Position numbers and translations under genes: made by a program. This document shows, piece after piece, positions 2,356 to 59,915 of a stretch of DNA of 64,000 nt (position 1 is the stretch's first letter; each line of letters opens with the position of its first letter). Source of the stretch: Candidatus Bathyarchaeota archaeon (GTDB lineage: Archaea > Thermoproteota > Bathyarchaeia > TCS64); NCBI GenBank assembly GCA_043826455.1, contig JBDRQD010000055.1, forward strand, positions 19,380-83,379. Direction: 5' to 3'. A model generated the notes under the pieces. The model searched no databases. It saw nothing but the letters and a program-made list of their open reading frames with translations, and had not been told where the DNA came from.

Positions 2356-2356
2356 G

Positions 2357-3720: not shown

Positions 3721-3722
3721 CC

Positions 3723-6145: not shown

Positions 6146-6151
6146 CCAGGC

Positions 6152-10999: not shown

Positions 11000-11479
11000 A
11001 TGGACTTAGAGTCACAGCTCCGAGAGTTCTTCGGAGAAGCCGAGAAACGGGTAGCACTGGTGGGTGTCGGCAACCCTCTCAGGGGAGACGATGGCGTCGG
11101 GGTGAAGATTATTGAGCTCCTCGAGGAGGCCGCCCTAGAGAACGTCATGCTGCTGAACACTGAGACTGTGCCAGAGGCTTTCACGGGGAAGGTGGCGGAG
11201 CACAAGCCCACCCACGTGCTGCTTCTGGACGCAGCAAACTTCCGTGGAGAGTTAGGCGACGTGAAGCTTATAGAGTCGTCGAAGATAGGTGGTCAGGCCA
11301 TATCCACCCACAGCCTGCCTCTTACCATATTCATAAGCTACATCGAGAAAATGATGGGCGCCAAGGTGCTGCTGCTTGGCGTACAGCCGAGGAACATCGA
11401 GTTCTTCACCGAGATGAGCCCAGAGGTAGAGAAGACGGCTGAGGATATAGCCGTCTTACTGACAAGAATACTTGGTTAA
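11000..11479 (+). CDS. hycI: Hydrogenase-3-type maturation endopeptidase
   Basis: GVGNPLRGDDGVG, ETVPE, LDAANF, STHSLPL; convergent with the group 4 hydrogenase operon. Confidence 0.9.
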   Translation: MDLESQLREFFGEAEKRVALVGVGNPLRGDDGVGVKIIELLEEAALENVMLLNTETVPEAFTGKVAEHKPTHVLLLDAANFRGELGDVKLIESSKIGGQAISTHSLPLTIFISYIEKMMGAKVLLLGVQPRNIEFFTEMSPEVEKTAEDIAVLLTRILG

Positions 11480-11490
11480 AGAAAGAGGGT

Positions 11491-11874
11491 TTAATCTTCC
11501 TTCTTGGCCGGCGCTGGGGGTGGGGGCGGCGTCCTGTCAAAGTTGAGGATGCCGTCCTCCTTCTTCAGGACCGCCAGCTCGTACGCTGTTGTGAGCCACA
11601 AGGCGTCCCTGGGACATATCTCCTCGCACTGCTGGCAGAAAAGGCACTTACCCAGGTCGACGGTGAGGCCCGTGCACTTGGGGCCGGGGCCCCCCTTCAG
11701 GGTTATGGCGAAGCTGGGGCATATCCTCACGCAGAGGGCGCAGCCTATGCACTTGTCTCCGTCGTACTCGTGCTTGCCACGTAGACCTTTCGGTGGCTCC
11801 AGCTTCTCGAAGGGGTATATGAGGGTCGCCGGCTTCTTGAACAGGCTTCTCAGTAGCTCTCTTTCCATGGCCAT
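11491..11874 (-). CDS. NuoI/MbhN-like 2x[4Fe-4S] subunit
   Basis: T.YPFEK, CIGCALCVRICP, CLFCQQCEEICP. Confidence 0.92.
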   Translation of the reverse strand: MAMERELLRSLFKKPATLIYPFEKLEPPKGLRGKHEYDGDKCIGCALCVRICPSFAITLKGGPGPKCTGLTVDLGKCLFCQQCEEICPRDALWLTTAYELAVLKKEDGILNFDRTPPPPPAPAKKED

Positions 11875-11875
11875 C

Positions 11876-12886
11876 TTAGATCACTCCCGATATGGCCACA
11901 ACGGCCATCACCTGTAGCACCGCCAGGGGCACCAGGTACCTCCACGCCCCTTGGACAAGCTGGTCTATCCTGAGCCTGGCGAAGAGGACGCTCAGGTTAC
12001 TGAGGATGAAGACGCAGAAGGTGGTTTTGAGAATGAACCAGACCACCGGGGGCAGTACTGGTCCCGCGGGTCCGCCCAGGAACAGGCTCGTCAGAAGGGC
12101 GGCCGCCAGCACCATCTTGATGTCACGCCCAGCGTTAAGGAGAGCCAGCTTCTTGCCGCTGTACTCCACCTGCCAGCCGTGGACGATCTCCGTCTCGGCC
12201 TCGCTCATGTCGAAAGGCTTCATCTCCAGTTCCGCTAGTAGGCAGACTGTGTAGATGACGAACCCTATGAAAAGGACCCCACCTGTAATTAGGCCCCAGA
12301 CATCGGGCGCGGCCAGGAAGGCGCCGAAGCTGGCCACCTGCCAGTCCACGATCTTGCTTATGCTGAGGCTCCGGGCCAGTATGGCGGGGCCTATGGCTAC
12401 CAATCCTAGGGGTATCTCGTATGCCAGCATCATGAAGGCCACCCTGGTGGCTCCCACGGCCCCGAAGAGGTTGCCGCTGCTCCACCCCGCCAGGAATATG
12501 GCGAGGACCGTGATGCTCATGAGGAACAGCACCATGATGAGGTCGCCCTCGAAGCTGGCCACAGCGTCCCAGGCCCAGAGGTTGGTGATGCTCTGGATGG
12601 GTATTAGGAAGGTGGCCGCCAGGGGTATAGCGAAGATGAAGAGCGGCGCGGCGTTAAACACTGGCTTGTTGGCCGCTGCGGGCGTGATGTCCTCCTTGAC
12701 CAGCAGCTTGATGAAGTCGGCCAGAGGCTGAAGAATGCCCTGCCACCCGGTGTGGAGGGGGCCCACCCGGTTCTGCAGTCGGGCAGCAACCTTTCTTTTC
12801 ACCCACTGGGCGTAGAGACTGTAAGTCAGTATGAAGGATAGTCCCGGGAACACCAGGACCGCTATCAGGGTTGTTATGAGGCTCAT
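11876..12886 (-). CDS. NuoH/MbhM-like membrane subunit
   Basis: RKVAARLQNRVGP, QPLADFIKLLVKE, PFDMSEAETEIV.GWQVEYSG, R.RIDQ. Confidence 0.93.
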   Translation of the reverse strand: MSLITTLIAVLVFPGLSFILTYSLYAQWVKRKVAARLQNRVGPLHTGWQGILQPLADFIKLLVKEDITPAAANKPVFNAAPLFIFAIPLAATFLIPIQSITNLWAWDAVASFEGDLIMVLFLMSITVLAIFLAGWSSGNLFGAVGATRVAFMMLAYEIPLGLVAIGPAILARSLSISKIVDWQVASFGAFLAAPDVWGLITGGVLFIGFVIYTVCLLAELEMKPFDMSEAETEIVHGWQVEYSGKKLALLNAGRDIKMVLAAALLTSLFLGGPAGPVLPPVVWFILKTTFCVFILSNLSVLFARLRIDQLVQGAWRYLVPLAVLQVMAVVAISGVI

Positions 12887-14064
12887 TTCTTGTACCACTC
12901 CAACCCGTATCTGCGGAGCTGCTCCTCGTCCCAGACCCAGGTTTTATCCTTGCCCTCGTCGTAGAATACCATCCTGTCGGTGCAGCTGAAGCAGGGATCG
13001 ATCCCCGCCAGCGTGATGGGTATATCCGCTATGTACCCACCCTTCAGGCGCTCGACGAGGCTGGGGATGTTACCCAGGGTCGGGGCCCTGATCTTGTGCC
13101 TGTAAGGCATGTTCCTGCCGTCGCTGATGGTGTAGTGGATGAGCTCGCCCCGCTGGGCCTCCACTATATAGACAGCCTCTCCCTCAGGCAGCTTCTGCAT
13201 TGGGTTGAACTTGACGGCGATCTCTCCTTCCGGTATGTTGTCTAGGACCCACTTGCATATCTTCACAGCCTCCAGTGTCTCCAGGACCCTGACCAGGACC
13301 TGGCCCAGGACGTCGCCGTTGTCCACGTAGATGTGCTCGAAGGGTATCTCGTCGTAGAGCAGATAGGGCGCCGTCTTCCTGGTGTCGCATGGGACGCCGC
13401 TGCTTCTGGCGTTGGGGCCGCAGCCGCTGAGCCTTATCATGTCCTCCTTGCCCAGGTACCCAACGCCCACCGCACGATCCAGTATCGTCTGCTCGGTGGA
13501 TGCGACCTTGATGTAGTAGTTGGTTCTCTCAGCCAAGGCGTCTAGGACCTTGTGCCACCTGGGGAAGTTATCCTTGCTGATGTCACGTCGGACGCCGCCG
13601 ACCGTGGGTATGGCGTAGTTGACCCTATTACCGCTGATCTCCTCCAGGAGATCCATGACAAGCTCGCGGTCACGCCACACGTAGTAGAACATGGTGTCGA
13701 ATCCTATCTCGTGGGCGGCTACCCCCACCCACAGGAGGTGGCTGTGGATGCGCTCAAGCTCGTGGAAGAAAACGCGGATGTACTTGGCGCGCTCAGGTAT
13801 CTCGATGCCTCCCACCTCCTCCACGGCCCCCGTGTAGGCGGTCTGGTGGGCGTTACTGCAGATACCGCAGACGCGCTCAGTTATGTAGAGGTTTTGGATG
13901 TAGTTGCGGGCCTCCATGGCCTTCTCGATGCCCCTGTGGTTGTACCCGATGCGGGGCTCCACGTCCACCACGGTTTCGCCGTCCACGGTGAAGTAGAAGC
14001 TCTCAGGCTCCTTGAGGGCGGGGTGCTGTGGCCCTATAGGTATAACGAACTGTCTGTCACTCAA
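12883..14064 (-). CDS. Group 4 [NiFe]-hydrogenase large subunit (NuoD/MbhL/EchE-like)
   Basis: GPQHP, HRGIEK, ERVCGICSNAH (L1), DPCFSCTDR (L2) plus C-terminal extension; TTG start at 14064 inferred. Confidence 0.93.
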   Translation of the reverse strand: MSDRQFVIPIGPQHPALKEPESFYFTVDGETVVDVEPRIGYNHRGIEKAMEARNYIQNLYITERVCGICSNAHQTAYTGAVEEVGGIEIPERAKYIRVFFHELERIHSHLLWVGVAAHEIGFDTMFYYVWRDRELVMDLLEEISGNRVNYAIPTVGGVRRDISKDNFPRWHKVLDALAERTNYYIKVASTEQTILDRAVGVGYLGKEDMIRLSGCGPNARSSGVPCDTRKTAPYLLYDEIPFEHIYVDNGDVLGQVLVRVLETLEAVKICKWVLDNIPEGEIAVKFNPMQKLPEGEAVYIVEAQRGELIHYTISDGRNMPYRHKIRAPTLGNIPSLVERLKGGYIADIPITLAGIDPCFSCTDRMVFYDEGKDKTWVWDEEQLRRYGLEWYKK

Positions 14065-14557
14065 CGTCTTTCCCCCACTTTTTTCCGTCCACCTTCTCAC
14101 GGAGTGTCTGGATGTCCCACTCCTTGCGCAGGGGGTGAACTCCCTCGGGCCAATCATAATCCAGTATCAACCTCTTTGGGTCTGGGTGCCCCTCGGGGAA
14201 CACTCCCAGGAGGTCATTGACCTCCCTTTCGTAGAGGACAGCCCCGTTAAGTATGTCCGTTATGCTGGGGACCTTGGGGTCGTCCTTGGGCACCGATACC
14301 TTAAGGTTCATGTTGAAGCCCTCGCTACGCAGGTGGTACACCACCTCGTACCTGTCCTTCATGTCCACGCCCGATATGGTGACGACATGGACGAAGCCGT
14401 GCTTCTCCTTAAGATACTTGACCACGTCCCTGAACACCTCCCGTTTGACGGTGGCGAAGGCCCTGTACAGCCGCGGAACCTTGGTGTCGGATACGTTTTC
14501 CTCGCCGAACTTTTTCACCAGGTCCTGCACGACTTTTGATTGTTCTTTAATGCTCAT
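14057..14557 (-). CDS. NuoC/MbhK-like subunit
   Basis: ISGVD, YEVVYHL, PSIT...AVLYERE..DLLGV.PEGHP..RLIL...P...HPLRK. Confidence 0.92.
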   Translation of the reverse strand: MSIKEQSKVVQDLVKKFGEENVSDTKVPRLYRAFATVKREVFRDVVKYLKEKHGFVHVVTISGVDMKDRYEVVYHLRSEGFNMNLKVSVPKDDPKVPSITDILNGAVLYEREVNDLLGVFPEGHPDPKRLILDYDWPEGVHPLRKEWDIQTLREKVDGKKWGKDVE

Positions 14558-14569
14558 TCACTTTTCACC

Positions 14570-14989
14570 TCAGTACCCCGCGCTCACCAGGAGCTTCACG
14601 ACGCCGTCCAGGATGGCCTCCGGCTTCGGCGGGCACCCTGGAACGAAGGCGTTCACCGGTATCACCTTGTCCACACCCTCCATGACGTTATAGCAGTCCT
14701 GGAAGACGCCGCCACTGATGGCACAGGATCCTACGGCTACCACGAACTTGGGCACGGGCATCTGCTCATAGATTCTTTTAAGCCTGTCCCTAACTTTCCT
14801 GGGGACTGAGCCGGACACCACCATCACATCCGCGTGCCGAGGTGTGCCCTTAAGAACGCCTCCGAACCTCTCCACGTCGAACCTGGGCATCAAGGCGGCC
14901 AACACCTCGATGTCGCAGGCGTTGCACGCGCCGGCGTTGAAGTGGATAAGCCAAGGTGAACGTGTTCTCGCCCATGCAAGTATGCTCAC
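14570..14989 (-). CDS. Group 4 hydrogenase small subunit (NuoB/MbhJ-like)
   Basis: GACNACDIE, PRHAD, GSCA.SGG, PGCPPKPE. Confidence 0.93.
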   Translation of the reverse strand: MSILAWARTRSPWLIHFNAGACNACDIEVLAALMPRFDVERFGGVLKGTPRHADVMVVSGSVPRKVRDRLKRIYEQMPVPKFVVAVGSCAISGGVFQDCYNVMEGVDKVIPVNAFVPGCPPKPEAILDGVVKLLVSAGY

Positions 14990-14990
14990 T

Positions 14991-15344
14991 TTACAGCCTC
15001 CACTTGGCGTTGAGTATCACTATGGAGATGAGGCTGGCACCGGCGTAGAATAGGGGCAGGAGAATGTTCACTGGGTTGGCGAAGGCGGTGACGAGCACGA
15101 AACCCAACACGTCGAATATCATGAAGTACACCGCATAGATGAAAAAGTTCTCAGTGTTAACCCTAACCTTTGTCGGTTGCACAGGTTCTCCACAAGCATA
15201 TGGGGCCAGCTTTCCTTCGGTGTCGGGGCTCTTGGGCGCGTAGTCGTTACCAAGAGCGATTATGATCAGCGCGACTACTAAGGAAAGTCCCATAATTAAA
15301 GTAAATCCACTAAGACCTGCTAGCAAACTTTGGTCCCTCAACAT
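14991..15344 (-). CDS. NuoA-like subunit
   Basis: K.APYACGE, YFMIFDV, three TM segments. Confidence 0.85.
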   Translation of the reverse strand: MLRDQSLLAGLSGFTLIMGLSLVVALIIIALGNDYAPKSPDTEGKLAPYACGEPVQPTKVRVNTENFFIYAVYFMIFDVLGFVLVTAFANPVNILLPLFYAGASLISIVILNAKWRL

Positions 15345-15569
15345 AGCGTTTTATTGGTGCATATAAAGATTTACGACAGATAAGATTATTCCCCTAATTT
15401 GGTACAGGTGGATATTCGGGGGTCCGTTTCATAGTATATTTTATTATTTTTGACCCTTTTAGTTGTCTTTCATTTATTAATGGAATCCCCGTTTTTAGGC
15501 GTATCAGCAGCGAAATTTTTATAGTGATAAAGATGATAGGTTAGCAATTCAAGATTAGGGGAGTTGTAA
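15345..15569. promoter_or_regulatory. AT-rich divergent promoter region between the hydrogenase module and the antiporter module
   Basis: TATA-like boxes on both strands (ATATAAAG ~15361; TTTTTATA ~15516) between divergent operons. Confidence 0.6.
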
Positions 15570-15815
15570 GTGGCGTCAGAAGTAGTTCAAATTATACTCA
15601 TTGCCGCAACCCTAGTCTTCGCTTTCATGGCCGCTGGACTCAAGGACCTACTGTACGCCGCCCTTAGCCTGGGCGGGATGGCCATCTGCCTGGGGGGCCT
15701 CTTCTGGACCCTCAACGCGCCGTACGTAGCCTTGTTCCAGATGCTCATCTATGGCGGAGCTGTGGTTGTCCTCTTCGTCTCCGTGATAATGTTCGTGAGG
15801 AGTGGCGAAGGATGA
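15570..15815 (+). CDS. NuoJ N-terminal / MbhD-like membrane subunit
   Basis: L.APYVALFQMLIYGGAVVVLF; three TMs. Confidence 0.8.
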   Translation: MASEVVQIILIAATLVFAFMAAGLKDLLYAALSLGGMAICLGGLFWTLNAPYVALFQMLIYGGAVVVLFVSVIMFVRSGEG

Positions 15816-16084
15816 GTGAGAGTAAGATCAGCCTCTACGCAGGCATCGTAGTAAGCGTACTCATCTTCGGGTCCCTCGTCCTGATCCTGGTCAACGAGCC
15901 GTTCCCCAGCTCCAAGCTGGTGCATAGCGAGATGATCCCGACTCAGCCAGGTTCACAGATCGGAGGCGCGATGAGTGGGTTCCTCTGGGACTTCAGAGGA
16001 ATGGATCTGGTGTTCCAGACACTAATCCTATTCACGACAGCCATCTGCTGTCTAGCAATGCTGAGAGAGGAGATACGGAAATAA
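15812..16084 (+). CDS. NuoJ C-terminal / MbhE (MrpA-C/MrpB)-like subunit
   Basis: LWDFRGMDLVFQTLILF resembles the DxRGxDT motif. Confidence 0.7.
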   Translation: MSESKISLYAGIVVSVLIFGSLVLILVNEPFPSSKLVHSEMIPTQPGSQIGGAMSGFLWDFRGMDLVFQTLILFTTAICCLAMLREEIRK

Positions 16085-16085
16085 G

Positions 16086-16397
16086 ATGAATGCAGTGGTT
16101 TGGCTCGGCTCGGCTTTCGCGTTGTTCGCCATAGGACTCTATTGTGTGTCCAAGCGAAACATGATACGCATCCTTCTAGGAATAGAGATAATTCTCAACT
16201 CCGGAAACCTGGCGTTCATATATTTCGCGTCAAATTATCCCGGCCTAGGCGTCGTGGACCCCCTCGGCCAGTCAGTGGTCTTCATGTCCATAGTGATCGG
16301 TGGGGCAGTGATGGCCATCGGCTTAGTTCTCATAGTCAACGCCTACAAGCAGTTCAAGACAACCGACTCCCAAGAGCTTAGGAGGTTGAAGTGGTGA
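16086..16397 (+). CDS. NuoK/MrpC/MbhG-like subunit
   Basis: RNMIRILLGIEIILNS, DPLGQ, ELRRLKW. Confidence 0.88.
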   Translation: MNAVVWLGSAFALFAIGLYCVSKRNMIRILLGIEIILNSGNLAFIYFASNYPGLGVVDPLGQSVVFMSIVIGGAVMAIGLVLIVNAYKQFKTTDSQELRRLKW

Positions 16398-17878
16398 TAC
16401 CCACAGCCCTCTACTACCTTTTCGCGCCTCTGCTGGTCGTCCTTGTGGGCGTAATGGCGGAGAGAATGGGCTCCCCCAAGCTACGGGACGGCTTTTCCAT
16501 ACTTGCGAGTATCTGGGGGATTGTCTCCGTCTGGATGCTTTTCAACATGCTCCAGGCTTCCCCTGACAAGATCCTGGTAATCACCATCGGCGGGAACCCG
16601 CCTCTGGCAGCGTGCCTGGAGATCGATGCACTAAGCATCTACGTGGCCTTCAGCGCCGCCCTTCTGGGGTTCTTCGCCAACGTATACAGTTATAGCTACA
16701 TGGACCACGATACGCGGCTGACTGAGTACTACACGCTGCTCCACGCTCTCGTAGTGGGAATCATTGGAGTGGCTCTCGCAGGCGACCTGTTTACAATGTT
16801 CATCTTCTGGGAGACCATGGGGATATCAAGCTACGCTCTGGTCGCCTTCAGGAAGGACACCCCTGGGCCCATCGAGGCGGGCTTCAAGTACATGATAATG
16901 GGCAGCGTCGGCAGCACGATCCTGTTCTTCGGGGCAGCCCTGCTCTACGGGATGACGGGTACACTGAACCTGGCTCAGATGAGCTCAGTGATCCGGGGGC
17001 AGGCTATAAACCCCTGGCTGTACCTGGTCTTCGCCATGCTGATCGTCGGGTTCGGCGTAAAATCCGCCATTGTACCCATGCACACATGGCTCCCCGACGC
17101 CCACCCAGAGGCGCCCAGCCCCATCAGCGCCATGCTGTCAGGGATAGTCATCGAGACCGGCCTCTACGCCATGGTCAGGGTGCTCTTCCTGCTCTTCGAG
17201 CCAAGCTTCTTCACAATGCCCATGATGATCCTAGCCATCATAACCATGAGCCTGGGGAACATCATGGCCCTGCTTCAGACCGACCTTAAGCGTCTGCTGG
17301 CCTACTCCAGCATCGCCCAGATCGGGTACATGCTGATAGGCGTCTCAACGGGTCTGAGCTATGGCCTCCTCGGGACGTTCATGCACGTGTTTAACCACTC
17401 CTTGATGAAGGGGATCGCTTTCCTCGCCGCGGGCAACATTGTGCATGAGACAGGGACCCGTGACATCAACGAGATGCAGGGCGTAGGAAGAATGATGCCA
17501 TTAACCACCTTGGCCATCACCGTAGCTTTCCTGGGCCTAGGCGGCGTACCCGGAACCAGCGGCTTCATCAGCAAGTTCATACTGTTCAACGCCTCGCTGG
17601 GCGCCGGCCTCCCAATACTGGCGATTGTCGGCGTCCTCAACAGCACGCTGAGCATGGCATACTACCTGAGAGTAATCATGACCCTCCTCAGCGGCAAGAT
17701 GCCGGAAGGTAAGGTAGTAAAAGAGGCCCCGCTCATGATGGTGGGAGTCACATTAGTCATGTCAATACTCGTTATCGCCTTCGGGCTTTACCCTAGCCCC
17801 ATAATGGGCATCTCAACCGATGCCTCTGAGGCCCTGATTAAGGGCCTCGTCAACTACATAGGAGCTGTTCTAAGATGA
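16391..17878 (+). CDS. Antiporter-like subunit 1 (NuoN/MrpD/MbhH-like)
   Basis: FWE, EAGFKY, VKSAIVPMHTWLPDAH, KRLLAYSS, GFISKF. Confidence 0.9.
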   Translation: MVIPTALYYLFAPLLVVLVGVMAERMGSPKLRDGFSILASIWGIVSVWMLFNMLQASPDKILVITIGGNPPLAACLEIDALSIYVAFSAALLGFFANVYSYSYMDHDTRLTEYYTLLHALVVGIIGVALAGDLFTMFIFWETMGISSYALVAFRKDTPGPIEAGFKYMIMGSVGSTILFFGAALLYGMTGTLNLAQMSSVIRGQAINPWLYLVFAMLIVGFGVKSAIVPMHTWLPDAHPEAPSPISAMLSGIVIETGLYAMVRVLFLLFEPSFFTMPMMILAIITMSLGNIMALLQTDLKRLLAYSSIAQIGYMLIGVSTGLSYGLLGTFMHVFNHSLMKGIAFLAAGNIVHETGTRDINEMQGVGRMMPLTTLAITVAFLGLGGVPGTSGFISKFILFNASLGAGLPILAIVGVLNSTLSMAYYLRVIMTLLSGKMPEGKVVKEAPLMMVGVTLVMSILVIAFGLYPSPIMGISTDASEALIKGLVNYIGAVLR

Positions 17879-20058
17879 GTGCACTAGAGACATTCCTGGA
17901 GTACCCTGGGCCGTTCCTCACGTGGATGCTCCCGATCATTGGCGCCATAATGATGCCCATCCTTGGGAAGATAAACCACAAGCTGAGAGACTACGGAGCA
18001 GTCCTGTTCGCGTTCTCTGCTGTGCTAGCCGCGGGAACCATGATACCTTACCTGTTCAATGGTCACCCGCCCGGGGACATCAAGCTCTTAACCTGGTTAA
18101 CTCTGCCCAACGGCACCCCACTGGAGTTCGGAGTACTAGTTGACCCCCTCAGCATAATTATATGTAACGTTGTGGCTCCCATCAGCTTCCTCATCGTGGT
18201 CTACTCCACGTCGTACATGCACGGGGACCCCGGCCTTGACAGGTACTGGTTCCTGTTCCTGTACTTCATCGGGAACATGCTGCTGCTGGTCCTAGCCAAC
18301 AACCTCATAATGACCCTGATAGGCTGGGAGGGCGTAGGTATATGCAGCTACGGCCTCATCGGCTACTACTACAGGGACCCGGAGAAAAGATGGTTGGGCG
18401 GTCCGCCCCCCACCAAGATGTTCCCCCCCAGCCACGCCGGCATGAAGGCCTTCGTGGTCACAGGCGTCGGGGACGTGCTGCTCCTGGCAGGTATCTTCAT
18501 AGTGTACCAGTACGCTGGAACCTTCAACTACGTGGAGCTCATCCACCACTCCCAGGAGTGGCTAGCGCACATGGCCCACGTTCCTGGGCTCGTGGCGTTG
18601 ATGGGTGTTCTTCTACTGGGGGGCCCCATAGGCAAGTCTGCCCAGTTCCCACTGCACGAGTGGCTTCCTGAGGCGATGGCGGGCCCCACAAGCGTATCGG
18701 CTCTCATCCACGCCGCCACCATGGTCAAGGCGGGCGTGTACCTGGTAGCCAGGCTGAGCCCCATCTTCTACATAGGAACATGGACCCTTCACCTTCCCGA
18801 GGCGCAGGTGTACTTCATCGCCATAGCCATAGTGGGCGCCTTCACCTGCTTCCTGGCGGCCAGTCAAGCCCTAGTGGCGTTAGAGCTCAAGAAGATACTG
18901 GCCTACTCGACTGTAAGCCAGATCGGTTACATGATGATGGGCATAGGGCTGGGCGGGTTCTCCGAGGAGGCCTACATTGTCGGGCTGACCGCTGGGGTGT
19001 ACCACCTGGCCAGCCACGCGTTGTTCAAGGCTGCGCTGTTCCTGGGCGCAGGGTCAGTGATCCACGCGGTCGAGAGCATCTACACCTTCGACATGGGTGG
19101 GCTGAAGAAGCACATGCCCAAGACCTACTGGCTCATGGTGTTAGCCACCTTAAGCCTATCAGGTATCCCGGTGTTCAGCGGGTTCTGGAGCAAGGACGCC
19201 GTATTCATCTCCGCCCTGGTGGCGGGGACACCCCTGGCCTACGCGTTGCTGGCGGTGGGCGTCCTCTGCGCGGCCATGACCTTCGCTTACAGCATCAGGT
19301 TCATTAGCAGGGTCTTCAGGCACGATGAGAGCAAGTTCATCAAGGACCTGGAGCACCACGGACACCACGTCCACGAGGCCCCCACAGTCATGTGGGCGCC
19401 CATAGCGATACTGGTGGCCCTGTTCTGCACAGTAGGTCTGCTGGGCTTCGCGGGCCTGTTCAACCAGGGGTTGAACCCCGAGATATTCATCGAGGAGCAG
19501 ATGCACCACATGGCCGAGTATATCCTGCCTCACGAAGTAGCGGCACACCTCCACGTGCCCCATATCAGTAGCTCAATCAAGCTCGTGGGCGTGGGGCTGA
19601 GCGCGGTCGCACTAGCCATCGGCGGGTACCTGGGCTACAACTTCTACTGGACCCGCAAATGGGACTCCTGGGCCTGGGTGCAGGCAAGCCGAATGCGAAC
19701 CATCACCCACAGCTTCCTCTGGAACAGGTGGTACATGAACCCGGTATACTACAGGGTCTTCGTGGACGGCACACTCGCCCTGAAACAGGTACTATACGAC
19801 AGCTTCGAGGCAAAGGTACTCATCCCTCTCAGCGACTTCGTGGCCAAGACATCTCAGACAGTCAGCGACGTCATGTACGCCGTCGTAGAGGAGAGAACCA
19901 TCTTCGGGATCATAAACACCGGGGTGCCCTCAACCGTTGTCAAGGTGTACAACCGGGTCAAGAAGACGCAGACAGGTCTACTAGGCATAAACATAATCTA
20001 CGTGATGGCCCTGCTCCTGTTGCTAATAATAGGAATGATGATCATGGGAGGTCTGTAA
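17875..20058 (+). CDS. nuoL: Antiporter-like subunit 2 (NuoL/MrpA-like) with extended amphipathic helix
   Basis: GWEGVG, GKSAQFPLHEWLPEAMAGPTSVSALIHAATMV, GFWSKD, C-terminal QTG followed by a TM anchor. Confidence 0.92.
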   Translation: MSALETFLEYPGPFLTWMLPIIGAIMMPILGKINHKLRDYGAVLFAFSAVLAAGTMIPYLFNGHPPGDIKLLTWLTLPNGTPLEFGVLVDPLSIIICNVVAPISFLIVVYSTSYMHGDPGLDRYWFLFLYFIGNMLLLVLANNLIMTLIGWEGVGICSYGLIGYYYRDPEKRWLGGPPPTKMFPPSHAGMKAFVVTGVGDVLLLAGIFIVYQYAGTFNYVELIHHSQEWLAHMAHVPGLVALMGVLLLGGPIGKSAQFPLHEWLPEAMAGPTSVSALIHAATMVKAGVYLVARLSPIFYIGTWTLHLPEAQVYFIAIAIVGAFTCFLAASQALVALELKKILAYSTVSQIGYMMMGIGLGGFSEEAYIVGLTAGVYHLASHALFKAALFLGAGSVIHAVESIYTFDMGGLKKHMPKTYWLMVLATLSLSGIPVFSGFWSKDAVFISALVAGTPLAYALLAVGVLCAAMTFAYSIRFISRVFRHDESKFIKDLEHHGHHVHEAPTVMWAPIAILVALFCTVGLLGFAGLFNQGLNPEIFIEEQMHHMAEYILPHEVAAHLHVPHISSSIKLVGVGLSAVALAIGGYLGYNFYWTRKWDSWAWVQASRMRTITHSFLWNRWYMNPVYYRVFVDGTLALKQVLYDSFEAKVLIPLSDFVAKTSQTVSDVMYAVVEERTIFGIINTGVPSTVVKVYNRVKKTQTGLLGINIIYVMALLLLLIIGMMIMGGL

Positions 20059-21537
20059 ATGTACGGTTCACTTTGGCTAGCCATACTGGCTCCTGTTCTC
20101 TTCATACCCATAGTCTATTTCTTAGGTAGAAGAATGGGGAAACTTGTAAGCTGGGTAGCTCTGGTTCCCCTCCTCTACAGCACACTATTTTTCCTAAGCC
20201 TCCTAGGAACGGTGGCCGAGAGTCCGGTCAGCGAGTACTTCTACTGGCTCCCCGGGATAAGGTTCGGGCTATACGCAGACGGGCTGAGTTTACCCATCGT
20301 CCTAACCGTCGCGGTCCTGTCAGCCATCATAGTGATCTACTCACAGCCTTATATGGTGCACAGCATCCACGAGCAGTACCACCACGAGAACAACAAGGCC
20401 CACGCCACATACTACGCGCTCTACCTCGCCTACGTGACGAGCATGATGGGCGTGGTACTCAGCACCAACCTGTTCGAGTTCTACCTGTTCTTCGAGTTGA
20501 TGATAATCCCCTCATGGGCCCTCATCAACGCCTACGGCTCAGGTGAACGCGAGAAGATAGGCCTCATGTACCTTCTCTGGTCCATCGTGGGCGCAGTGGC
20601 CTTCGTCACAGGGGCGCTCTCAGCCTACGCACAGACAGGCTCCTTCGAGTTGGTAGGCCTGGTAAAGCTGATAGGCTCCCCGTGGGCAGGGTTTATCGTC
20701 GTATCCATGTTACTGGGCCTATGTGTGAAGATGGCCCTATTCGGTCTACACATATGGCTGCCTTTCGCCCACGCGGAGGCACCAACCCCCATAAGCGCCC
20801 TGCTGAGCCCGGCCATGATCGGCCTGGCGGCTTACGCCATTGTGAGGATGCTTCTACCCATCACGGGGGTGATGGACACCTACTTCACGTTGACCCTGAT
20901 CTGGGGCCTGGCGACAATGATCTACGGAGGGATGATGGTGATGGCGCAGACGGACATCAAGCGTCTGCTGGCCTACTCCAGCATGAGCCAGATGGGGTAC
21001 CTGTTCGTGGGCATCGCCAGCGCCACAACCCTAGGCGTGGGAGGAGCCATGATGCACTACATCAGCCACGGCCTGGGAAAGGCGGCTCTTTTCCTTAGCG
21101 TCGGGGCCATAATGCACCAGACAGGCAATAGAGACATCCGTCAACTCGGCGGCCTCGCGGCGAAGATGCCCATCACAGCGATGGCCTTCATAATAGGGGC
21201 CATGAACATCTCCGGCATCCCGCCCACCATGGGCTTCGTGTCCAAGTTGATGATATTCATGGGCGCCTTCGGCCCAGGGGTCCACGAGATCTCCACGGAG
21301 CTCGTGTTAGCCCTCGTAGCCATCCTGTCCACCGCTTTAACGATAGGGTACACCATGTGGGCGATGCGTCGCATCTTCTACGGTCCTATCCCTGAGCATC
21401 TTGAGGACGTGAAAGAGGCGCCCCCCCTGATGACCATACCCATGGTTCTGCTGTGCGTCCTATCAATACTGATTGGCATCTATCCGAGGCCAATCATCGA
21501 CCCAATAATGGAGGTAGTAGCGGCGCTACTCATGTGA
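20059..21537 (+). CDS. Antiporter-like subunit 3 (NuoM-like)
   Basis: LYADGLSLP, FFELMIIP, HIWLPFAHAEAP, KRLLAYSS. Confidence 0.9.
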   Translation: MYGSLWLAILAPVLFIPIVYFLGRRMGKLVSWVALVPLLYSTLFFLSLLGTVAESPVSEYFYWLPGIRFGLYADGLSLPIVLTVAVLSAIIVIYSQPYMVHSIHEQYHHENNKAHATYYALYLAYVTSMMGVVLSTNLFEFYLFFELMIIPSWALINAYGSGEREKIGLMYLLWSIVGAVAFVTGALSAYAQTGSFELVGLVKLIGSPWAGFIVVSMLLGLCVKMALFGLHIWLPFAHAEAPTPISALLSPAMIGLAAYAIVRMLLPITGVMDTYFTLTLIWGLATMIYGGMMVMAQTDIKRLLAYSSMSQMGYLFVGIASATTLGVGGAMMHYISHGLGKAALFLSVGAIMHQTGNRDIRQLGGLAAKMPITAMAFIIGAMNISGIPPTMGFVSKLMIFMGAFGPGVHEISTELVLALVAILSTALTIGYTMWAMRRIFYGPIPEHLEDVKEAPPLMTIPMVLLCVLSILIGIYPRPIIDPIMEVVAALLM

Positions 21538-21538
21538 G

Positions 21539-23041
21539 GTGAATGATGTGGTAAACAACATGCTGTTCCTTATGATCCTGGTGGCGTTCCTGCCGGCACC
21601 CCTCGTCTACTTGATAGGAAAAAGTGTGGGTAAAAAGGTGGGCTGGGTGGTCTTCGCCGTCCTCCTAGGGATCACCATCGTCCTCGGGGGGCTCATCTCC
21701 GTGGTCGAGCACGAGGTACTGTTCGAGGAGTACAGCTGGGTGGCCTCACCCGTTAAACTAACCTTTGGGTTGTTAGCTGACGGGCTCAGCGTGCCCATGC
21801 TGTTCACGTACCTGTTCGTGTTCGCTGGGGCGACTCTATTCAGTGTGCCCTACATGGAGAGACGGCTCAAGCTCGGCGACATCGAGGAGAGCAACACGCA
21901 GTACGCAAGGTTCTACACCTTCTTCCTGCTGTACGCGGCCAGCGTCGCTGGGTCCATGCTCGCCACCAACCTGATAGAGTTCTTCCTCTTCTTCGAGATG
22001 GCTCTCGTCTTCTCGTGGCTGCTGGTGTTCCTCTACGGCTACGGGGACCGGAAGCGCACCTCCATGCTATACTTCATATGGACCCACATCGGAGGCGGCG
22101 CCCTCCTGGTGGGCATCCTCGGCGCATACTGGACGGTGGGCAGCTTCGAGATCGCTGACCTGGCGCACATCGCCTCGCACCCCAATGTCCTGTGGATTGG
22201 GATCGCCATCACCCTCGGCCTCTTCGTCAAGATAGGTGCTCTCGGCTTCCACGGCTGGATGCCGGACACATACTCCGAGTCGCCAGCCCCCGTCAGCGCG
22301 GTTCTAGGAGCCACCTCGGTGATGCTGAGCACCTACGCCATGGCCAGGCTTCTCCCACCCTTCCAGGAGGTACTTCAGGGAATCAGCGGATGGTTCATGC
22401 TCTGGGCCCTAGCCACGATCCTCTACGCCGGCATCATGGCGCTGGCTCAGAGGGACACAAAGCGCCTGGTGGCCTACCTGAGCATGAGCCAGATGAACTA
22501 CTGTGTTCTAGGAGTCTTCACATTCGTACCATACGGCGTCCTCGGCGCGGTATCCTACAGCATCAGCCACGGCTTAGCCATCGGGCTGCTGTTCCTCGTC
22601 TCAGGCGCCCTGCTATACGTGACTGGGACACGGGACATGACCAAGATGGGCGGGCTGTCAGAGAAGCTTCCCATCACTCTCTTGGCTACCCTAGCGGGTT
22701 TCCTAACCATAGGTGGAGTGCCCCCCGCGGTGGGCTTCAAGTCCAAGTTCATCCTCCTGAGCGGGGCCTTCGTAAGGGGCTTCGCGACGGGGTGGATGGA
22801 GTTGCTTGTAGCCATCCTGGCGGGAAGCCTGGCCACATTGATCACCCTGGGATACGAGTTCCGGACAATATGGCGGGTATACTACGGCAAACTGCCTGAT
22901 GCCATCAAGGAGGTGGCGCGTGTGCCTGACGTGATGGTCGTCGCGTTTGTGGCGCTCAGCGCGCTTTCAATAGTGTTCGGTATATGGCCTGCGCTGTTCA
23001 CGAACGCCCTGGACGTGTTCATAGAGCATATATTCCACTAA
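21539..23041 (+). CDS. Antiporter-like subunit 4 (second NuoM-like)
   Basis: LADGLSVP, FFEM, HGWMPDTYSESP, KRLVAY, GFKSKF. Confidence 0.88.
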   Translation: MNDVVNNMLFLMILVAFLPAPLVYLIGKSVGKKVGWVVFAVLLGITIVLGGLISVVEHEVLFEEYSWVASPVKLTFGLLADGLSVPMLFTYLFVFAGATLFSVPYMERRLKLGDIEESNTQYARFYTFFLLYAASVAGSMLATNLIEFFLFFEMALVFSWLLVFLYGYGDRKRTSMLYFIWTHIGGGALLVGILGAYWTVGSFEIADLAHIASHPNVLWIGIAITLGLFVKIGALGFHGWMPDTYSESPAPVSAVLGATSVMLSTYAMARLLPPFQEVLQGISGWFMLWALATILYAGIMALAQRDTKRLVAYLSMSQMNYCVLGVFTFVPYGVLGAVSYSISHGLAIGLLFLVSGALLYVTGTRDMTKMGGLSEKLPITLLATLAGFLTIGGVPPAVGFKSKFILLSGAFVRGFATGWMELLVAILAGSLATLITLGYEFRTIWRVYYGKLPDAIKEVARVPDVMVVAFVALSALSIVFGIWPALFTNALDVFIEHIFH

Positions 23042-23177
23042 AAACACCTTTTTTTCAACATTTTATATTACATCACACTGCAAGTACTTTTACACACGAG
23101 CCGCCCAGGGAAGCCTCTTTCACGGTTTTTCGGGTGTGCATAAGTTTTTTTAGGCGAGAAAACGTTGCTGATAGGAA

Positions 23178-23495
23178 ATGAGCATAGCTGTCATTGGCCC
23201 CTCCTCTTTCGTCACATGCTTCGAACTCATCGGCGCCGCAGGCTACGAGGAGCACGAGGAGGGGACAGTGGTCGCGACCCTAACCCGCCTGGTCAACGAG
23301 GGTGACTTCAAGCTCATCGTCATACCTGAACGATACGCTGGAGCCACCCGGCCCATAAGGGAGGAGGTCATGAAGAGGGGCAGGATCACCCCCATCTTCG
23401 CCCTCATCCCCGACCTGACCATGGAGACAGGTATGAGGATGGAGGAGCTCCAGGCGGTGGTCTCGCTCGCAATAGGGACAAGGTTGGAGTTATAG
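23178..23495 (+). CDS. atpF: A/V-type ATPase subunit F
   Basis: IAVIG...F.LIG, size ~105 aa, AIG C-terminus, operon context. Confidence 0.8.
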   Translation: MSIAVIGPSSFVTCFELIGAAGYEEHEEGTVVATLTRLVNEGDFKLIVIPERYAGATRPIREEVMKRGRITPIFALIPDLTMETGMRMEELQAVVSLAIGTRLEL

Positions 23496-23499
23496 AACA

Positions 23500-23832
23500 A
23501 TGGAAATGAAGAGCATCCTTTCATTGGGCGGAAGACTGAAGAGGCTCCTAGCCAAGGCCGAGGAGGAGGCCCAGGGGATGGTGTCCGAGGCCCAGGCCAA
23601 GGCGGACGAGATCGTCAACAACGCCAAGAAGGAGTCCGAGCAACGTTTAACAAAGGCTCAGTACCGCACAGATCTCGACGAGTTCCTGGTGGACGCCGAG
23701 AGGGAGGCCAAGGAGAAGGCCAAGCAAGTCGAGAAGGACTACGCCAAAAGAGCCGATGACATCAGAGTCGTCCCCGGCGACAAGGTCAAGGAGGCCGCGG
23801 GGATGGTGGTTAAGGAGGTGCTGCCGAAATGA
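23500..23832 (+). CDS. atpH: A/V-type ATPase subunit H/G (peripheral stalk)
   Basis: EEEA...EA..A coiled coil, 110 aa, operon context. Confidence 0.7.
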   Translation: MEMKSILSLGGRLKRLLAKAEEEAQGMVSEAQAKADEIVNNAKKESEQRLTKAQYRTDLDEFLVDAEREAKEKAKQVEKDYAKRADDIRVVPGDKVKEAAGMVVKEVLPK

Positions 23833-24452
23833 GCCAGGACTTGGACACCAAGCTGATAGAGAAGATCGTGGAGCAGCGTAACCAGTTCCTGGTAGAGGCC
23901 AAGGAGAGGGCCCAGAGAATACTGGAGAAGGCCGAGGAGGATCGCGAGAGGATCATTGAGCAGACCGCTAAAAGCATCGAAAGTATAGTGGGATCAGAGC
24001 TCAGGGCCGTTCATGACAGGATCGTGGGCAGGGCCCAGTTGGAGGGCAGGAGGAAGCTCCTTGAGGCCAGGATTGAGGTCTTGGAGACTGTCAAGTCCGA
24101 GGCCATGGTGGAGCTCAGATCCCTGGCGGAGGGCAAACACCCCGAGTATGACTACTCGGAGATACTGGTCAAGCTCATAGTGGAGGCAGACGAGGCCATA
24201 GTGGAAGACGAGTACGTCGTCTCCGCCAACAAGAGGGACCTGGCGTACCTGAAGAAGAACCTGAGCCAGGTGAGCAAGGCCCTCGGTGGCAAGAAGGTGG
24301 TGCTCAGCGAGACCCCCCGGGATATCCTTGGAGGGGTGATCGTGATGAACTCTGACGGCACCAAGACACTGGAGAACACCCTTGAGAGGAGGCTGGAAGC
24401 CGCCAACAGCAGGCTCCAGACAGAGATCGCCGTGAAGCTGGGGGTGATCTAG
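23829..24452 (+). CDS. atpE: A/V-type ATPase subunit E
   Basis: N-terminal coiled coil; ILGGVIV...DG....NTLE.RL. Confidence 0.85.
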   Translation: MSQDLDTKLIEKIVEQRNQFLVEAKERAQRILEKAEEDRERIIEQTAKSIESIVGSELRAVHDRIVGRAQLEGRRKLLEARIEVLETVKSEAMVELRSLAEGKHPEYDYSEILVKLIVEADEAIVEDEYVVSANKRDLAYLKKNLSQVSKALGGKKVVLSETPRDILGGVIVMNSDGTKTLENTLERRLEAANSRLQTEIAVKLGVI

Positions 24453-26225
24453 ATGGCGCAGCGAATTGAAGGAACGATAGAGAGGATCAACGGTTCACTG
24501 GTGGTGGCCAAGTTCACCGAGGAGCCCAAGATGGGCGACCTCGTAGAGGTGGGGAGCCTCAAGCTCATGGGGGAGATCGTCAGGCTCAGAGAGGAGACCG
24601 CCTACATCCAGTGCTACGAGTCCACCTCCGGTCTGAAGCCCGGGGAGCCCGTCATAGACATCGGCACACCCCTGGTCGCCGAGCTGGGCCCCGGACTCAT
24701 GGGTCAGATCGTGGACGGTGTGGAGCGCTCAGAGATAGAGCTCTGGAACATGACAGGCCCCTTCATCACCAGGGGCGCCAACATCGCCCCCCTCAACAGG
24801 GAGAAGAAGTGGGAGCTCAAGCCCACCGTGAAGCCGGGGGCCGAGGTGACAGGCGGCGACGTCATAGGCACGGTTCAGGAGACCGAGACCTTCGTCCACA
24901 GGATACTCGTGCCCCCGCAGCTCACCGGGACCATCAAGTCCCTCAAGGCGGGCACCTACACAGTCACCGACGCAATAGGCGTCCTCGAGACCGAGGCGGG
25001 CGAGGAGGTCCCCCTCAAGATGATGCAGACGTGGCCCGTCAGGCGGAGTAGGCCCATCAAGGAGAGGATGGCGCTGAACGCGCCCCTAATCACGGGGCAG
25101 AGGGTCATCGACACCTTCTTCCCGTGCGCCAAGGGGGGCGCCTCAGCTGTCCCCGGGGGCTTCGGCACCGGCAAGACGGTCACACTTCAACAGATCGCCA
25201 AGTGGAGCGACGCCGACATCATCGTCTATATCGGGTGCGGCGAACGCGGCAACGAGATGGCCGACGTAGTTGAGCAGTTCCCTGAGATCAAGGACCCGCG
25301 GAGCGGCAGGAACCTCATCGAGAGGACCATCATCGTGGCCAACGTATCCAACATGGCGGTCTCCGCCCGTGAGGCCAGCATCTACATGGGCCTCACCATA
25401 GGCGAGTACTTCAGGGACATGGGCTACGACGTGGCCATCATGGCCGACTCCACCAGCAGGTGGGCCGAGGCCCTCCGTGACATCTCGGGACGCCTGGAGG
25501 AGATCCCCGCCGAGGCCGGGTTCCCAGCGTACCTGGCCGACAGGATCGCCGAGATCTACGAGCGGGCGGGCAGGGTCCAGCTCATAGGCACTGAGGACAA
25601 GTACGGCAGCCTCACCCTTTTGGGGGCCGTGTCGCCGCCCGGCGGAGACTACTCGGAGCCTGTTACTACCACGACTCTCAGGTTCATCGGCACATTCTGG
25701 GCCTTGGACAGCCAGCTAGCCTACAGGCGCCACTTCCCGGCCATCAACTGGCTGAGAAGCTTCACCAGGTACCTGACGGTTGCGGCCAGGTGGTGGAGCC
25801 AGTACGAGTCCAGGTGGGAGGACACGAGGAGCCTGGCGCTGAGAGTGCTTGAGGAGGCCGCGGAGATCGAGGAAACGGCGCGCATCATAGGCGAGAAGGC
25901 GCTGCCCGACGACCAGAGGCTTGTGCTGCTGGTGGCCGAGATGCTCCGGGAGGGCTTCCTGGTCCAGAGCGCGTACCACGACGTGGACACGTTCTGCGCT
26001 CCCGAGAAGCAGGTGAAGCTACTATCCCTCTTCACGGACTTTTACACCATGTCCCGGCCCCTAGTCGAGCAGGGCATACCCATCGACAAGGTCCGTGAGC
26101 TGGACGTCATCAGGGAGATAATGAGGCTCAAGGAGCGGGAGGGCACCAAGCCCATCGACCAGGCCAGAGGCATGATGATGGACGAGATTAGGGATCTGAA
26201 GGCCCAGTACGAGGTGAACAAGTAG
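24453..26225 (+). CDS. atpA: A/V-type ATPase catalytic subunit A
   Basis: GGFGTGKT Walker [29 protein letters not shown]; no intein. Confidence 0.97.
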
Positions 26226-27619
26226 TGAGTATGCTAGCGCGTGTAGTGTATAAGACCACGACGGAGATCAAGGGCCCCATCCTCATGGTGGAGCGGATCA
26301 GGGATGTGGCCTTCGACGAGATCGTCCTCATCGAGCGGCCCAGCGGCGAGATGGTGCAGGGCAGCGTCCTGGACGTGAGCAGGGACTGGGCCATGGTCCA
26401 GTGCTTCGGGGAGACCTCGGGCCTGGACATCAGCACAAAGATCAGCTTCACGGGGGACGTCCTCAGGATACCCGTCTCGGAGGACCTAATCGGTAGGGTC
26501 TTCAGCGGAAGCTTCCAGCCCCTGGACAAGATGCCCCAGATAATAGGCAAGGAACGGCGGGACGTCAACGGCGGCGTCATCAACCCCGCCGCCAGGGAGG
26601 TGCCCAGGGAGTTCATCCAGACAGGAATCAGCAACATCGACGGCATGAACAGCCTGGTCCGCGGACAGAAGCTCCCCATCTTCAGCGAGTCCGGCATGCC
26701 CCACAATCAGCTCGCAGCCCAGATAGCTAGGCAGGCCACCATCCCGGGGGCCGAGAGCGAGTTCGCCATAGTCTTCGGCGCCATGGGCATCAAGAACGAG
26801 GAGGCAGCCTACTTCAGGGAGGAGTTCGAGAAGACCGGGGCCCTCAACAAGAGCGTCATGATCCTCAACCTGGCCGACGACCCCCCCATCGAGAGGATCG
26901 TCACGCCCCGCATCGCCCAGACCATCGCCGAGTACCTGGCCTTCGACCTGGGCCTGCATGTGCTGGTCATCCTCACGGACATGACCAACTACGCGGAGGC
27001 GCTTAGGGCCATCAGCATCGCCCGCGAGGAGATTCCCACAAGGAAGGGGTACCCCGGGTACCTATACAGCGACCTGGCCACCATATACGAGCGGGCGGGC
27101 CGCATCAAGGGGAGGCCCGGCAGCGTCACCCTGATGCCCATCCTGTCGATGCCGGCCGGCGACATCACCCACCCCATCCCGGACCTCACAGGATACATCA
27201 CCGAGGGCCAGCTACTCATCCAGCGTGAGCTCAGCCTCAGAGGCATCTATCCGCCCATGAACGTCCTACCCAGCCTCAGCAGGCTCATGAAGGACGGCAT
27301 CGGAAGGGAGACCACCCGCGAGGACCACCAGGACGTAAGCAACCAGCTGTACATGGCCTACGCTGAGGGGACGAGAGCTCGCGGCCTGGTCCGTATCGTC
27401 GGAACCGTGGGCCTCTCGGAGCGTGAGCGCCAGTGGCTCAGCTTCGCGGACAGGTTCGAGAGAGAGTTCGTCCACCAGGGCATCTACGAGAACAGGACCA
27501 TAGTGCAGACCCTGGACCTGGCCTGGGACCTGCTGGCGGACCTCCCGGAGGAGGACCTCATCAGGGTGCGTGAGTCCTACATCAAGAAGTACCACCCCAA
27601 GCATAAGAGTGAAGCGTAA
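26225..27619 (+). CDS. atpB: A/V-type ATPase subunit B
   Basis: [48 protein letters not shown]. Confidence 0.97.
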
Positions 27620-27621
27620 GC

Positions 27622-28239
27622 ATGTCCGCTGCATCCGGCGTCAGGCCCACAAAGGGCTACCTCATGGAGACCAAGACTCGCATCCAGGTCGTGGAGCGCG
27701 GGACCGAGTTCCTGAAGCTCAAACGCGACCAGCTGGCCAAGCAGCTCACAGAATCCTTGGATGTGCTCCGGGGCCGACGCATCCTCCTGCTGAAGAACCT
27801 GCAGGAGGCCTACAGCGCCTTGACGGCGGCGTACCTGAGCCTGGGGCCCACGGAGGTGAAGAGCCAGGTGCGGGCCATCAGGAAGCCCCTCACATTGGAG
27901 GTGCTGCCCCGCAGCGTCATGGGTGTGGTCTACCCGTCTGTACGCGTCAAGGATAAACCCGAGATAGCGGCCGAGCTGGACATAACCCTCGCCCACGCAG
28001 CAGAGCAGGTGTACGAGATCATCGAGGAGCTCATCCACCTGGCCGAGTTCGAGGAGCGGGTGGAGCGCATCGCCCAGGAGCTGGGCACAACGAACCGCAA
28101 GGTGAACGCCCTGGAGAACTTTGTAATACCGGACATGAAGGCCATCATCAAGTTCATAGAGGACAAGCTGGACGAGGAGAGCATGGAGGAGCTTGTACGG
28201 ACAAAGCTCATAGGAGGTGCTAAGACATCGAGAAGATGA
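27622..28239 (+). CDS. atpD: A/V-type ATPase subunit D
   Basis: PTK, LKLKRD.L, TNRKVNALE..VIP, LDE. Confidence 0.93.
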   Translation: MSAASGVRPTKGYLMETKTRIQVVERGTEFLKLKRDQLAKQLTESLDVLRGRRILLLKNLQEAYSALTAAYLSLGPTEVKSQVRAIRKPLTLEVLPRSVMGVVYPSVRVKDKPEIAAELDITLAHAAEQVYEIIEELIHLAEFEERVERIAQELGTTNRKVNALENFVIPDMKAIIKFIEDKLDEESMEELVRTKLIGGAKTSRR

Positions 28240-59755: not shown

Positions 59756-59915
59756 TACTTTAATGCCTCCATGTTTTCTGCGTTGTGAGATAACGTGATT
59801 TCACAGTCGACTCTCACCTTTTCTCACCTAAGTCAACCTTCTATACATAAATATCTTTTCCACGACAAGCTGTTTTATAAAAACGGAAAAATGAAAAAGG
59901 GTTTGCCGTGTGAGG

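Follow-up and report, generated by a model that had tools for sequence, protein, structure and literature searches.

The subject of this study is a divergent gene cluster of a Candidatus Bathyarchaeota archaeon that, to judge from its sequence, encodes a complex-I-like group 4 [NiFe]-hydrogenase with four antiporter subunits. It lies at positions 11000 to 23041 of the window, i.e., the whole analysed stretch of 64,000 nucleotides (NCBI GenBank assembly GCA_043826455.1, contig JBDRQD010000055.1, positions 19,380 to 83,379 of the forward strand). The genome is 97.7% complete with 7.2% contamination, and the closest named relatives of the L subunit belong to Bathyarchaeia (86-93%). In window coordinates, the features are the following:

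11000..11479, plus strand, HycI-type hydrogenase maturation endopeptidase (TIGR00142 137.5 bits, cut-off 119.1; PF01750)
11491..11874, minus strand, I subunit with 2x[4Fe-4S], NuoI/HycF-like by profile matches, the likely site of ferredoxin docking
11876..12898, minus strand, H subunit, NuoH-like membrane anchor (PF00146 295 bits; alignment to E. coli NuoH)
12883..14064, minus strand, D subunit, [NiFe] large subunit of 393 aa with a TTG start (Ni motifs, PDB matches)
13846-13875, minus strand, L1 motif of D (RVCGICSNAH)
12973-12999, minus strand, L2 motif of D (DPCFSCTDR)
14057..14557, minus strand, C subunit, NuoC-like (PF00329)
14570..14989, minus strand, B, small subunit with hydrogenase-type CxxC (profile and motif)
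14991..15344, minus strand, A subunit, NuoA-like (PF00507 above cut-off)
15345..15569, no strand, AT-rich divergent intergenic region, likely the site of both promoters (sequence; ends of RNA-library contigs)
15570..15815, plus strand, J1, N-half of NuoJ (PF00499)
15812..16084, plus strand, J2, C-half of NuoJ (no Pfam match; aligns to the fused J of relatives)
16086..16397, plus strand, K subunit (PF00420)
16391..17878, plus strand, N-position antiporter, MbhH/MrpD-like, 495 aa (best PDB match MbhH, 5e-84)
17875..20058, plus strand, L antiporter, 727 aa (TIGR01974, NuoL, above cut-off)
19723..19968, plus strand, lateral helix region of L, 82 residues, two docking units (first residues Glu645, nt 19807, and Glu672, nt 19888)
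20059..21537, plus strand, M1 antiporter, 492 aa (TIGR01972, NuoM, above cut-off)
21539..23041, plus strand, M2 antiporter, 500 aa (best model NuoM, slightly below cut-off)
23178..29261, plus strand, A1 sector of an A1AO ATP synthase (F, G, E, A, B, D, C), a conserved neighbour outside the complex

The A-B-C-D-H-I arm and the opposite arm of split J, K and four antiporters, which an earlier note on this DNA had described from the bare sequence, were all recovered with the positions, sizes and strands it gave, and HycI adjoins them as it had claimed. In Pfam/NCBIfam profile searches, N, L, M1 and M2 are the four PF00361 proteins, all on the plus strand. J1 and J2 are the two halves of a single fused J reading frame in 5 relatives, and the gaps from J1 through M2 range from -7 to +1 nt. 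RNA-library contigs of close relatives from 4 studies, mostly at 90-99% identity, extend over both arms and connect N to L and M1 to M2; they end near 15328, start at 15564-15575 and leave the HycI bin with nearly no cover, and such contigs show neither transcription nor its level. A scan of the locus for sigma-70 promoters and terminators stayed at chance level. The T-rich run at 23042-23070, directly 3' of M2, is a likely archaeal terminator, so that the ATP synthase genes may be transcribed on their own.

The head of the complex is that of a true group 4-type hydrogenase, as the earlier note had proposed. In D both Ni-binding motifs are kept and followed by a 29-residue C-terminal extension of the cleavable type, B carries the hydrogenase CxxC and not the CC motif of NuoB, and a maturation endopeptidase is at hand. 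The cysteines in D and the residues beyond its final DR rule out a Ni-less head of the Nuo/Fpo/MBS kind. In a PDB search, the best solved relatives of D are Pyrococcus furiosus MbhL (8e-86) and E. coli HycE; a search of the ESM Atlas with the large subunit returned generic clusters only and added nothing. The claim that the locus carries no NuoEFG or FpoF input module held in a profile search of the cluster, the sole NuoF-like domain of the genome lying on another contig. An Mbh-type Na+ module is likewise missing as far as MrpE (PF01899) is concerned, which had no match genome-wide while the control matched in 7/14; MrpF and MrpG were not searched genome-wide.

Statements on published systems refer here to the accessible parts of the papers cited. 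The nearest of these systems is Hfo, the Fpo-like 11-subunit group 4g [NiFe]-hydrogenase of Bathy-6 Bathyarchaeia, with three antiporters and, in that text, no biochemical characterisation (Loh, Herve, Brune 2021, PMC7886697). The locus shares with Hfo all 11 Nuo/Fpo core subunits (A, B, C, D, H, I, J, K, L, M and N, here with J split and M doubled), L1/L2 Ni motifs (CGICSNAH and DPCFSCTDR conform to the published patterns), the lack of an F420/NADH module and of the Mbh Na+ module, and the direction proposed. Whereas Hfo has three antiporters in Fpo order, the window has four antiporter genes, two divergent operons, a split J, a lateral helix 27-28 residues longer, and a Lys in transmembrane helix (TM) 12 of the M subunits. 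A collinear three-pump form was found in relatives of genus g4. The second comparison is 2M complex I (Chadwick et al. 2018, known to us via PMC6606698, PMC7300363 and bioRxiv 10.1101/2021.11.15.468770), for which a higher H+/2e- ratio and reverse flow to ferredoxin were proposed. Its second NuoM gene and its insertion of about 26 residues in the lateral helix of NuoL recur here, but D carries Ni ligands and is not a quinone-reducing Ni-less NuoD, and the duplication is independent, with gene order L-M1-M2. By its sequence, the locus is a group 4 hydrogenase and a variant of Hfo with an arm like that of 2M, yet it is not a 2M complex I.

An indication of where the fourth antiporter sits comes from the lateral helix of L. 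Measured as the residues between fixed anchors, it spans 82 residues in the window, i.e., 27-28 more than the 53-55 of three-pump relatives; with the same anchors, E. coli NuoL has 50 and most Nitrososphaerota and bacterial NuoL have 54-55. The spans in 88 tails fall at 27 (4), 53-55 (16), 79-82 (58), 108-109 (9) and 136 (1), with none between. A stretch of 27 helix residues measures about 41 Å, roughly the width of one antiporter. All 19 complete M1+M2 loci have a helix of 82, ten single-M loci have 53-55, and three more loci with 53-55 have no M after L. Among 54 complete loci, a set that leaves out incomplete ones such as that of G025, M genes never outnumber helix units, and there is one hydrogenase with only L and N and a helix of 27. 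Genome G065 combines three M genes with a helix of 108 and three units. A lag-score test for internal repeats gave a weak signal at 27-28 residues, and clear repeats are confined to two genomes, G086 and G025 (89% and 70% between units, respectively). A 26-residue insertion has also been described as the mark of clusters with an extra pump (Yu et al., bioRxiv 10.1101/2021.11.15.468770). The stepwise lengths and the helix of 82 in every complete M1+M2 locus support a single arm of four pumps, which this sequence comparison makes very probable; lengthened by one 27-residue unit, the NuoL helix offers room for the second M. Neither these steps in helix length nor the relatives with a single M gene figured in the earlier note.

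M1 and M2 are 38% identical. In a tree of 94 sequences and 479 columns (IQ-TREE fast mode, LG+F+G4; no Mrp reference sequences included), each is the sister clade of the other (SH-aLRT 100), and both fall within the Thermoproteota M group. The single M of the order is sister to both with a support of only 80.8, M2 is the longest-branch M in the tree, and an earlier FastTree run left M1, M2 and single M unresolved. Orthologues of M2 were found in 25/46 genomes of the family and in one other among 301 genomes of the class; together with the low M1-M2 identity, they rule out an assembly duplication. That M2 is an Mrp subunit is ruled out by its place in the M group and the lack of MrpE in the genome, in agreement with the earlier note. 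An origin from the clade-2 type of 2M is excluded as well: the second M of M-L-M-N loci (G050, locus L047) groups with bacterial NuoM (100), so that the sister clades M1 and M2, standing apart from it, point to an independent duplication. In other Bathyarchaeia, L047 and L115 are separate 2M clusters of this M-L-M-N kind with a helix of 79-80.

The two arms, as anticipated, are conserved together: a single contig holds the Ni head and N-L-M1-M2 in 7 further genomes (G007, G010, G014, G020, G028, G030 and G077; in two of these the head is cut by the contig end) and the two are likewise joined on 4 metagenome contigs. In G027, G068, G069 and G070, L-M1-M2 comes after a collinear head whose D is without Ni cysteines, which means that the distal arm is common to two heads, and in some genomes L-M(-M) is separated from N. 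Loci with a collinear B-C-D-H-I-J-K head, a Ni-less D and the same arms are L078, L096, L103, L107, L108 and L225-L228. In L080, L087, L095 and L099, L-M(-M) and the ATP synthase come immediately after HycI, and N and a Ni-less head are found on a different contig; this layout is a remnant of an exchange of heads.

The docking units of the helix add information on the order within the arm. In Paracoccus, the helix is structural and anchored by D648 to H239 and Y315 of NuoM (PMC9802314). The equivalent of H239 is invariant in the M subunits studied here, and by its position the unit Glu would correspond to D648. In 17/17 M1+M2 loci in which the Tyr of the TM7 loop is gone from M (Phe was read in 14, the loop was unread in 3), the unit Asp is lost in both units; where M1 keeps this Tyr (4/4 loci), unit 1 keeps its Asp and only unit 2 has lost it, which places M1 beside L. 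The pairing holds 7/7 in genus g4. It is broken in G039, G065 departs from gene order, and the pattern amounts to about three independent events among kin that are not independent, all of which weakens the case. On balance we consider the order L-M1-M2-N, with M1 next to L and M2 next to N, to be probable, with less assurance than the single arm itself.

A rival to the four-pump arm is that M1 and M2 alternate in one slot of a three-pump arm, or that M2 works elsewhere, the longer helix being a leftover or an intermediate. Long helices without extra pump genes do occur among the relatives, and similar ones in Ca. Manganitrophaceae were taken as intermediates (bioRxiv 10.1101/2021.11.15.468770). 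The lengths, however, fall only on steps of about 27 residues in the 88 tails, units 1 and 2 have diverged in step with M1 and M2, a short helix occurs in no M1+M2 locus, and the three M genes of G065 match its three units; we regard the one-slot arrangement as very unlikely.

Whether all four antiporters would translocate protons was considered from their charged residues. All of M1, M2, single M, N and L retain TM5 Glu and TM7 Lys, and M1 has in addition the TM11 His/His/Lys and TM12 Lys. TM12 of this lineage's M carries Lys in 49/49 readable sequences and Glu in 18/18 other M, the TM12 Glu having been called unique to NuoM (PMC7419157). L lacks the equivalent of NuoL R175 in these loci, and a TM12 Lys facing the TM5 Glu of the next subunit would make M-M junctions like N-M ones. 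N has Glu at the TM8 Lys position of MbhH/NuoM in 35/35 relatives. Two sets of residues speak against full pumping. M2 is without TM8 Lys, TM10 His, TM11 Lys and one TM11 His (17/17) and, by these losses, may relay and not pump; K keeps the equivalent of E36 and A that of D79, but K lacks E72 and A lacks E81, which makes a fifth proton, through the E-channel, doubtful and 4 H+ likelier than 5. By analogy to complex I, we predict about 4-5 H+ per H2. An assembled M2 acting as a non-pumping spacer or relay, with stoichiometry at the three-pump level, would fit its lost residues and long branch; this alternative we hold to be improbable, since M2 keeps TM5 Glu and TM7 Lys (17/17) and TM12 Lys and has gained an invariant Lys two residues before the latter (16/16 readable), E. 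coli NuoM can do without its TM8 Lys (PMC9802314), and no NuoM variant lowered the stoichiometry in Paracoccus in the accessible part of the same paper.

Taken together, these data are best explained by an Hfo-type hydrogenase with a single L-M1-M2-N arm that would move about 4-5 H+ per H2 and run in reverse, an explanation to which, as a whole, we assign a probability of roughly 50%. The four antiporters would form one arm through which inward proton flow drives the reduction of ferredoxin, the presumed electron partner, from dilute H2. The extra pump would shift the balance point of the enzyme to about 0.01-1 Pa H2. At higher pressures, the proton-motive force (pmf) would power the reduction of ferredoxin by H2 for the Wood-Ljungdahl pathway, and the two smaller group 4 hydrogenases of the genome would vent H2. 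The latter clusters, L129 (G000:C48) and L130 (G000:C15), have one and two antiporter genes, and a genome with 1, 2 and 4 pumps could possibly be described as a gearbox.

The direction of flow depends on pressure and pmf, for which reversal points were computed from redox potentials and constants. With ferredoxin at -500 mV, flow reverses at 120 mV at 0.63 Pa H2 for 4 H+ and at 0.006 Pa for 5 H+; with 4 H+, the point moves to 0.006 Pa at 150 mV and to 14 Pa at 100 mV. Sediment H2 is about 0.1-1 Pa. The view of the earlier note that the ferredoxin/H2 span is too small to run forward therefore stands at higher H2 or pmf and fails below about 0.6 Pa at 120 mV. Whichever way the enzyme runs, the extra pump adapts it to dilute H2, and for the net reverse direction, H2 to ferredoxin, we see the chances as evenly balanced. 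In its favour, with ferredoxin at -500 mV a pmf of 150 mV or more rules out forward flow of 4-5 H+ (4 H+ at 150 mV would be allowed only below 0.006 Pa), the genome encodes CdhA, CdhC, FwdA and Mch, and two smaller, lower-geared hydrogenases exist for venting; Loh et al. proposed an equal direction for Hfo (PMC7886697). Several observations weigh against it. Reduced ferredoxin can be supplied by 8 full-length matches to the AOR family and 10 to the POR family, and Rnf, MtrA, McrA and cytochrome oxidase (COX1) were not found in the genome. A nearby Mvh-Hdr cluster could reduce ferredoxin without pmf, reverse flow of 4-5 H+ paid for by ATP hydrolysis would cost more than 1 ATP per ferredoxin, and the Ni-less head on the same arm in relatives likely implies forward flow there.

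These points also feed the main competitor, namely the same arm run forward in a peptide/aldehyde fermenter that oxidises ferredoxin, evolves H2 into surroundings starved of H2 and pumps about 4 H+ for the adjoining ATP synthase. Besides the AOR and POR matches and the arm shared with a Ni-less Fpo/Mbs-like head, it draws on the search of the genome having found no primary pump other than the two small group 4 hydrogenases, on ATP synthase genes coming after the arm in most relatives, and on forward transport of 4 H+ being allowed below 0.6-14 Pa at 100-120 mV with ferredoxin at -500 mV. It requires, however, a pmf of about 120 mV or less, whereas the c subunit in the window has two hairpins and one Glu, then Gly, and one Glu per two hairpins would mean a low H+/ATP ratio and the need for a higher pmf. 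Moreover, were a pump to sit on every unit, Ni-bearing relatives with a helix of 108-136 would lie beyond any forward limit. We consider forward operation a serious possibility, though less likely than the reverse.

Some neighbouring genes touch this question. Window positions 104-6598, 4.4 kb upstream, encode HdrA, MvhD, HdrC, HdrB, MvhG, MvhA and a protease, a cluster of the electron-bifurcating type. The A1AO ATP synthase is in two parts, 23178-29261 by the pump arm and I and K at 59330-62072, 30 kb off; we take the Glu-Gly site of its c subunit to be H+-like. A second ATP synthase cluster (L262, G000:C38, 1240-1944) has a triplicated c subunit with Glu-Thr/Ser sites, presumably Na+-like. 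A match to heme-copper oxidase subunit I was seen in one of 21 genomes searched (G002:C13:21464-22714) and is possibly contamination.

The relatives with one M gene bear on how the helix is to be read. A helix of 82 also occurs in 11 single-M loci and one of 108-109 in 7 (G043 has 109), a count that leaves out G050, with a second M upstream, and G051, with another layout; in G081 and G083 one M is split by a frameshift. Helix length alone is therefore no proof of four different subunits, which tells against our explanation. In a whole-genome PF00361 search of 9 long-helix single-M genomes, no further M gene was found, the fourth match of G061 aside. Exactly three matches were present in G002, G037, G040, G064 and G086, the fourth match of G036 (one contig) belongs to a separate Ech-like cluster, N is cut in G032, and in G025 the contig ends inside M. 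M genes can sit away from the locus (G046, G053), and the long-helix single-M genomes are 88-96% complete. The congeners G064 and G065 have an equal helix of 108 with one M gene versus three. In single-M loci an E-x4-D motif is present in every unit (14/14 at 82, 8/8 at 108 or more), and this despite an identity of no more than 47% for unit 1 among these loci; helix length changes repeatedly along the single-M tree, and G086 and G025 carry recent 27-residue tandem duplications in the L helix.

The simplest reading of these sequences is that each unit may dock one M, the product of a single M gene being used several times. We hypothesize that the NuoL helix is a molecular ruler, with one M per 27-residue unit, by which the order tunes arms of two to six pumps; the proposal is tentative and falls a little short of even odds. 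Single-M genomes with a helix of 82, 108-109 or 136 would then build M homodimers, homotrimers and longer rows, the exchange of TM12 Glu for Lys in M and the loss of the R175 equivalent in L would make M-M rows charge-compatible, G064, G086 and G025 would have [NiFe]-hydrogenases with five or six pumps, and the M1-M2 pair of the window would be a gene-duplicated, specialised form. Alternatively, the surplus helix may be a tolerated intermediate, as Yu et al. proposed. Loci of note in this series are the Ni hydrogenases L141 (G025:C130, span 136) and L233 (G086:C4, span 109), with a possible assembly error in the duplications; L240 (G065:C24, 8087-16465), with five consecutive antiporter genes (N, L with a helix of 108, single-type M, M1 and M2) and a Ni-less head; and L051, L056, L057 and L114, the two-pump form, in which a Ni hydrogenase has no antiporters besides L and N and the helix measures 27 residues.

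Part of this picture is already published: Hfo (2021), 2M complex I (2018; archaeal in 2020) and an extra fpoM in Bathyarchaeia (2021). The earlier note had regarded 2M complexes as mainly bacterial, which has to be corrected, as they are described in archaea (PMC7300363, 2020). No hydrogenase with four antiporters was found in the open literature (subscription papers and bioRxiv supplements were outside the search); the enzyme type itself is published as Hfo. The accessible parts of PMC11697101 and PMC10321748 hold nothing further on such hydrogenases, and the phrase 'molecular ruler' was not found in related open-literature papers. For Family-5 of the Bathyarchaeia, from hot springs, operons with an inserted fpoM copy are reported (Qi et al. 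2021, PMC8407382), likewise an extra M gene in a complex-I-like cluster of Bathyarchaeia; they are described as Fpo-like, the accessible text holds no analysis of Ni motifs, helix or paralogy, and they may not be of the same lineage. Complex_I_3 of Ca. Manganitrophaceae has five pump genes and, like the loci here, helix insertions also without extra pump genes, but it is a bacterial quinone-type complex, and its surplus helix was read as an intermediate and not as a ruler (Yu et al., bioRxiv 10.1101/2021.11.15.468770). Complex-I-like hydrogenases of Asgard archaea have shorter arms (bioRxiv 10.1101/2024.07.04.601786). Among solved structures (P. furiosus MBH and MBS, PDB 6cfw and 6u8y), the nearest to D is MbhL and the nearest to N is MbhH; MBH has one antiporter and a Na+ module, unlike the four antiporters of the window, and E. 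coli Hyf has three antiporter genes against four here. MBS has three antiporters and no Ni.

In its number of pump modules, this hydrogenase would surpass respiratory complex I, and its gearing would suit the very low H2 of the anoxic habitats where Bathyarchaeia are abundant. Its relatives provide a natural series in which the same heads carry two, three, four, five and possibly six modules, which opens to direct test the old question of whether H+/2e- scales with antiporter number and whether the lateral helix sets that number. The ruler, with its homo-oligomers of M, is the part most surprising to a specialist; if it is true, gene counts underestimate the number of pumps in many genomes.

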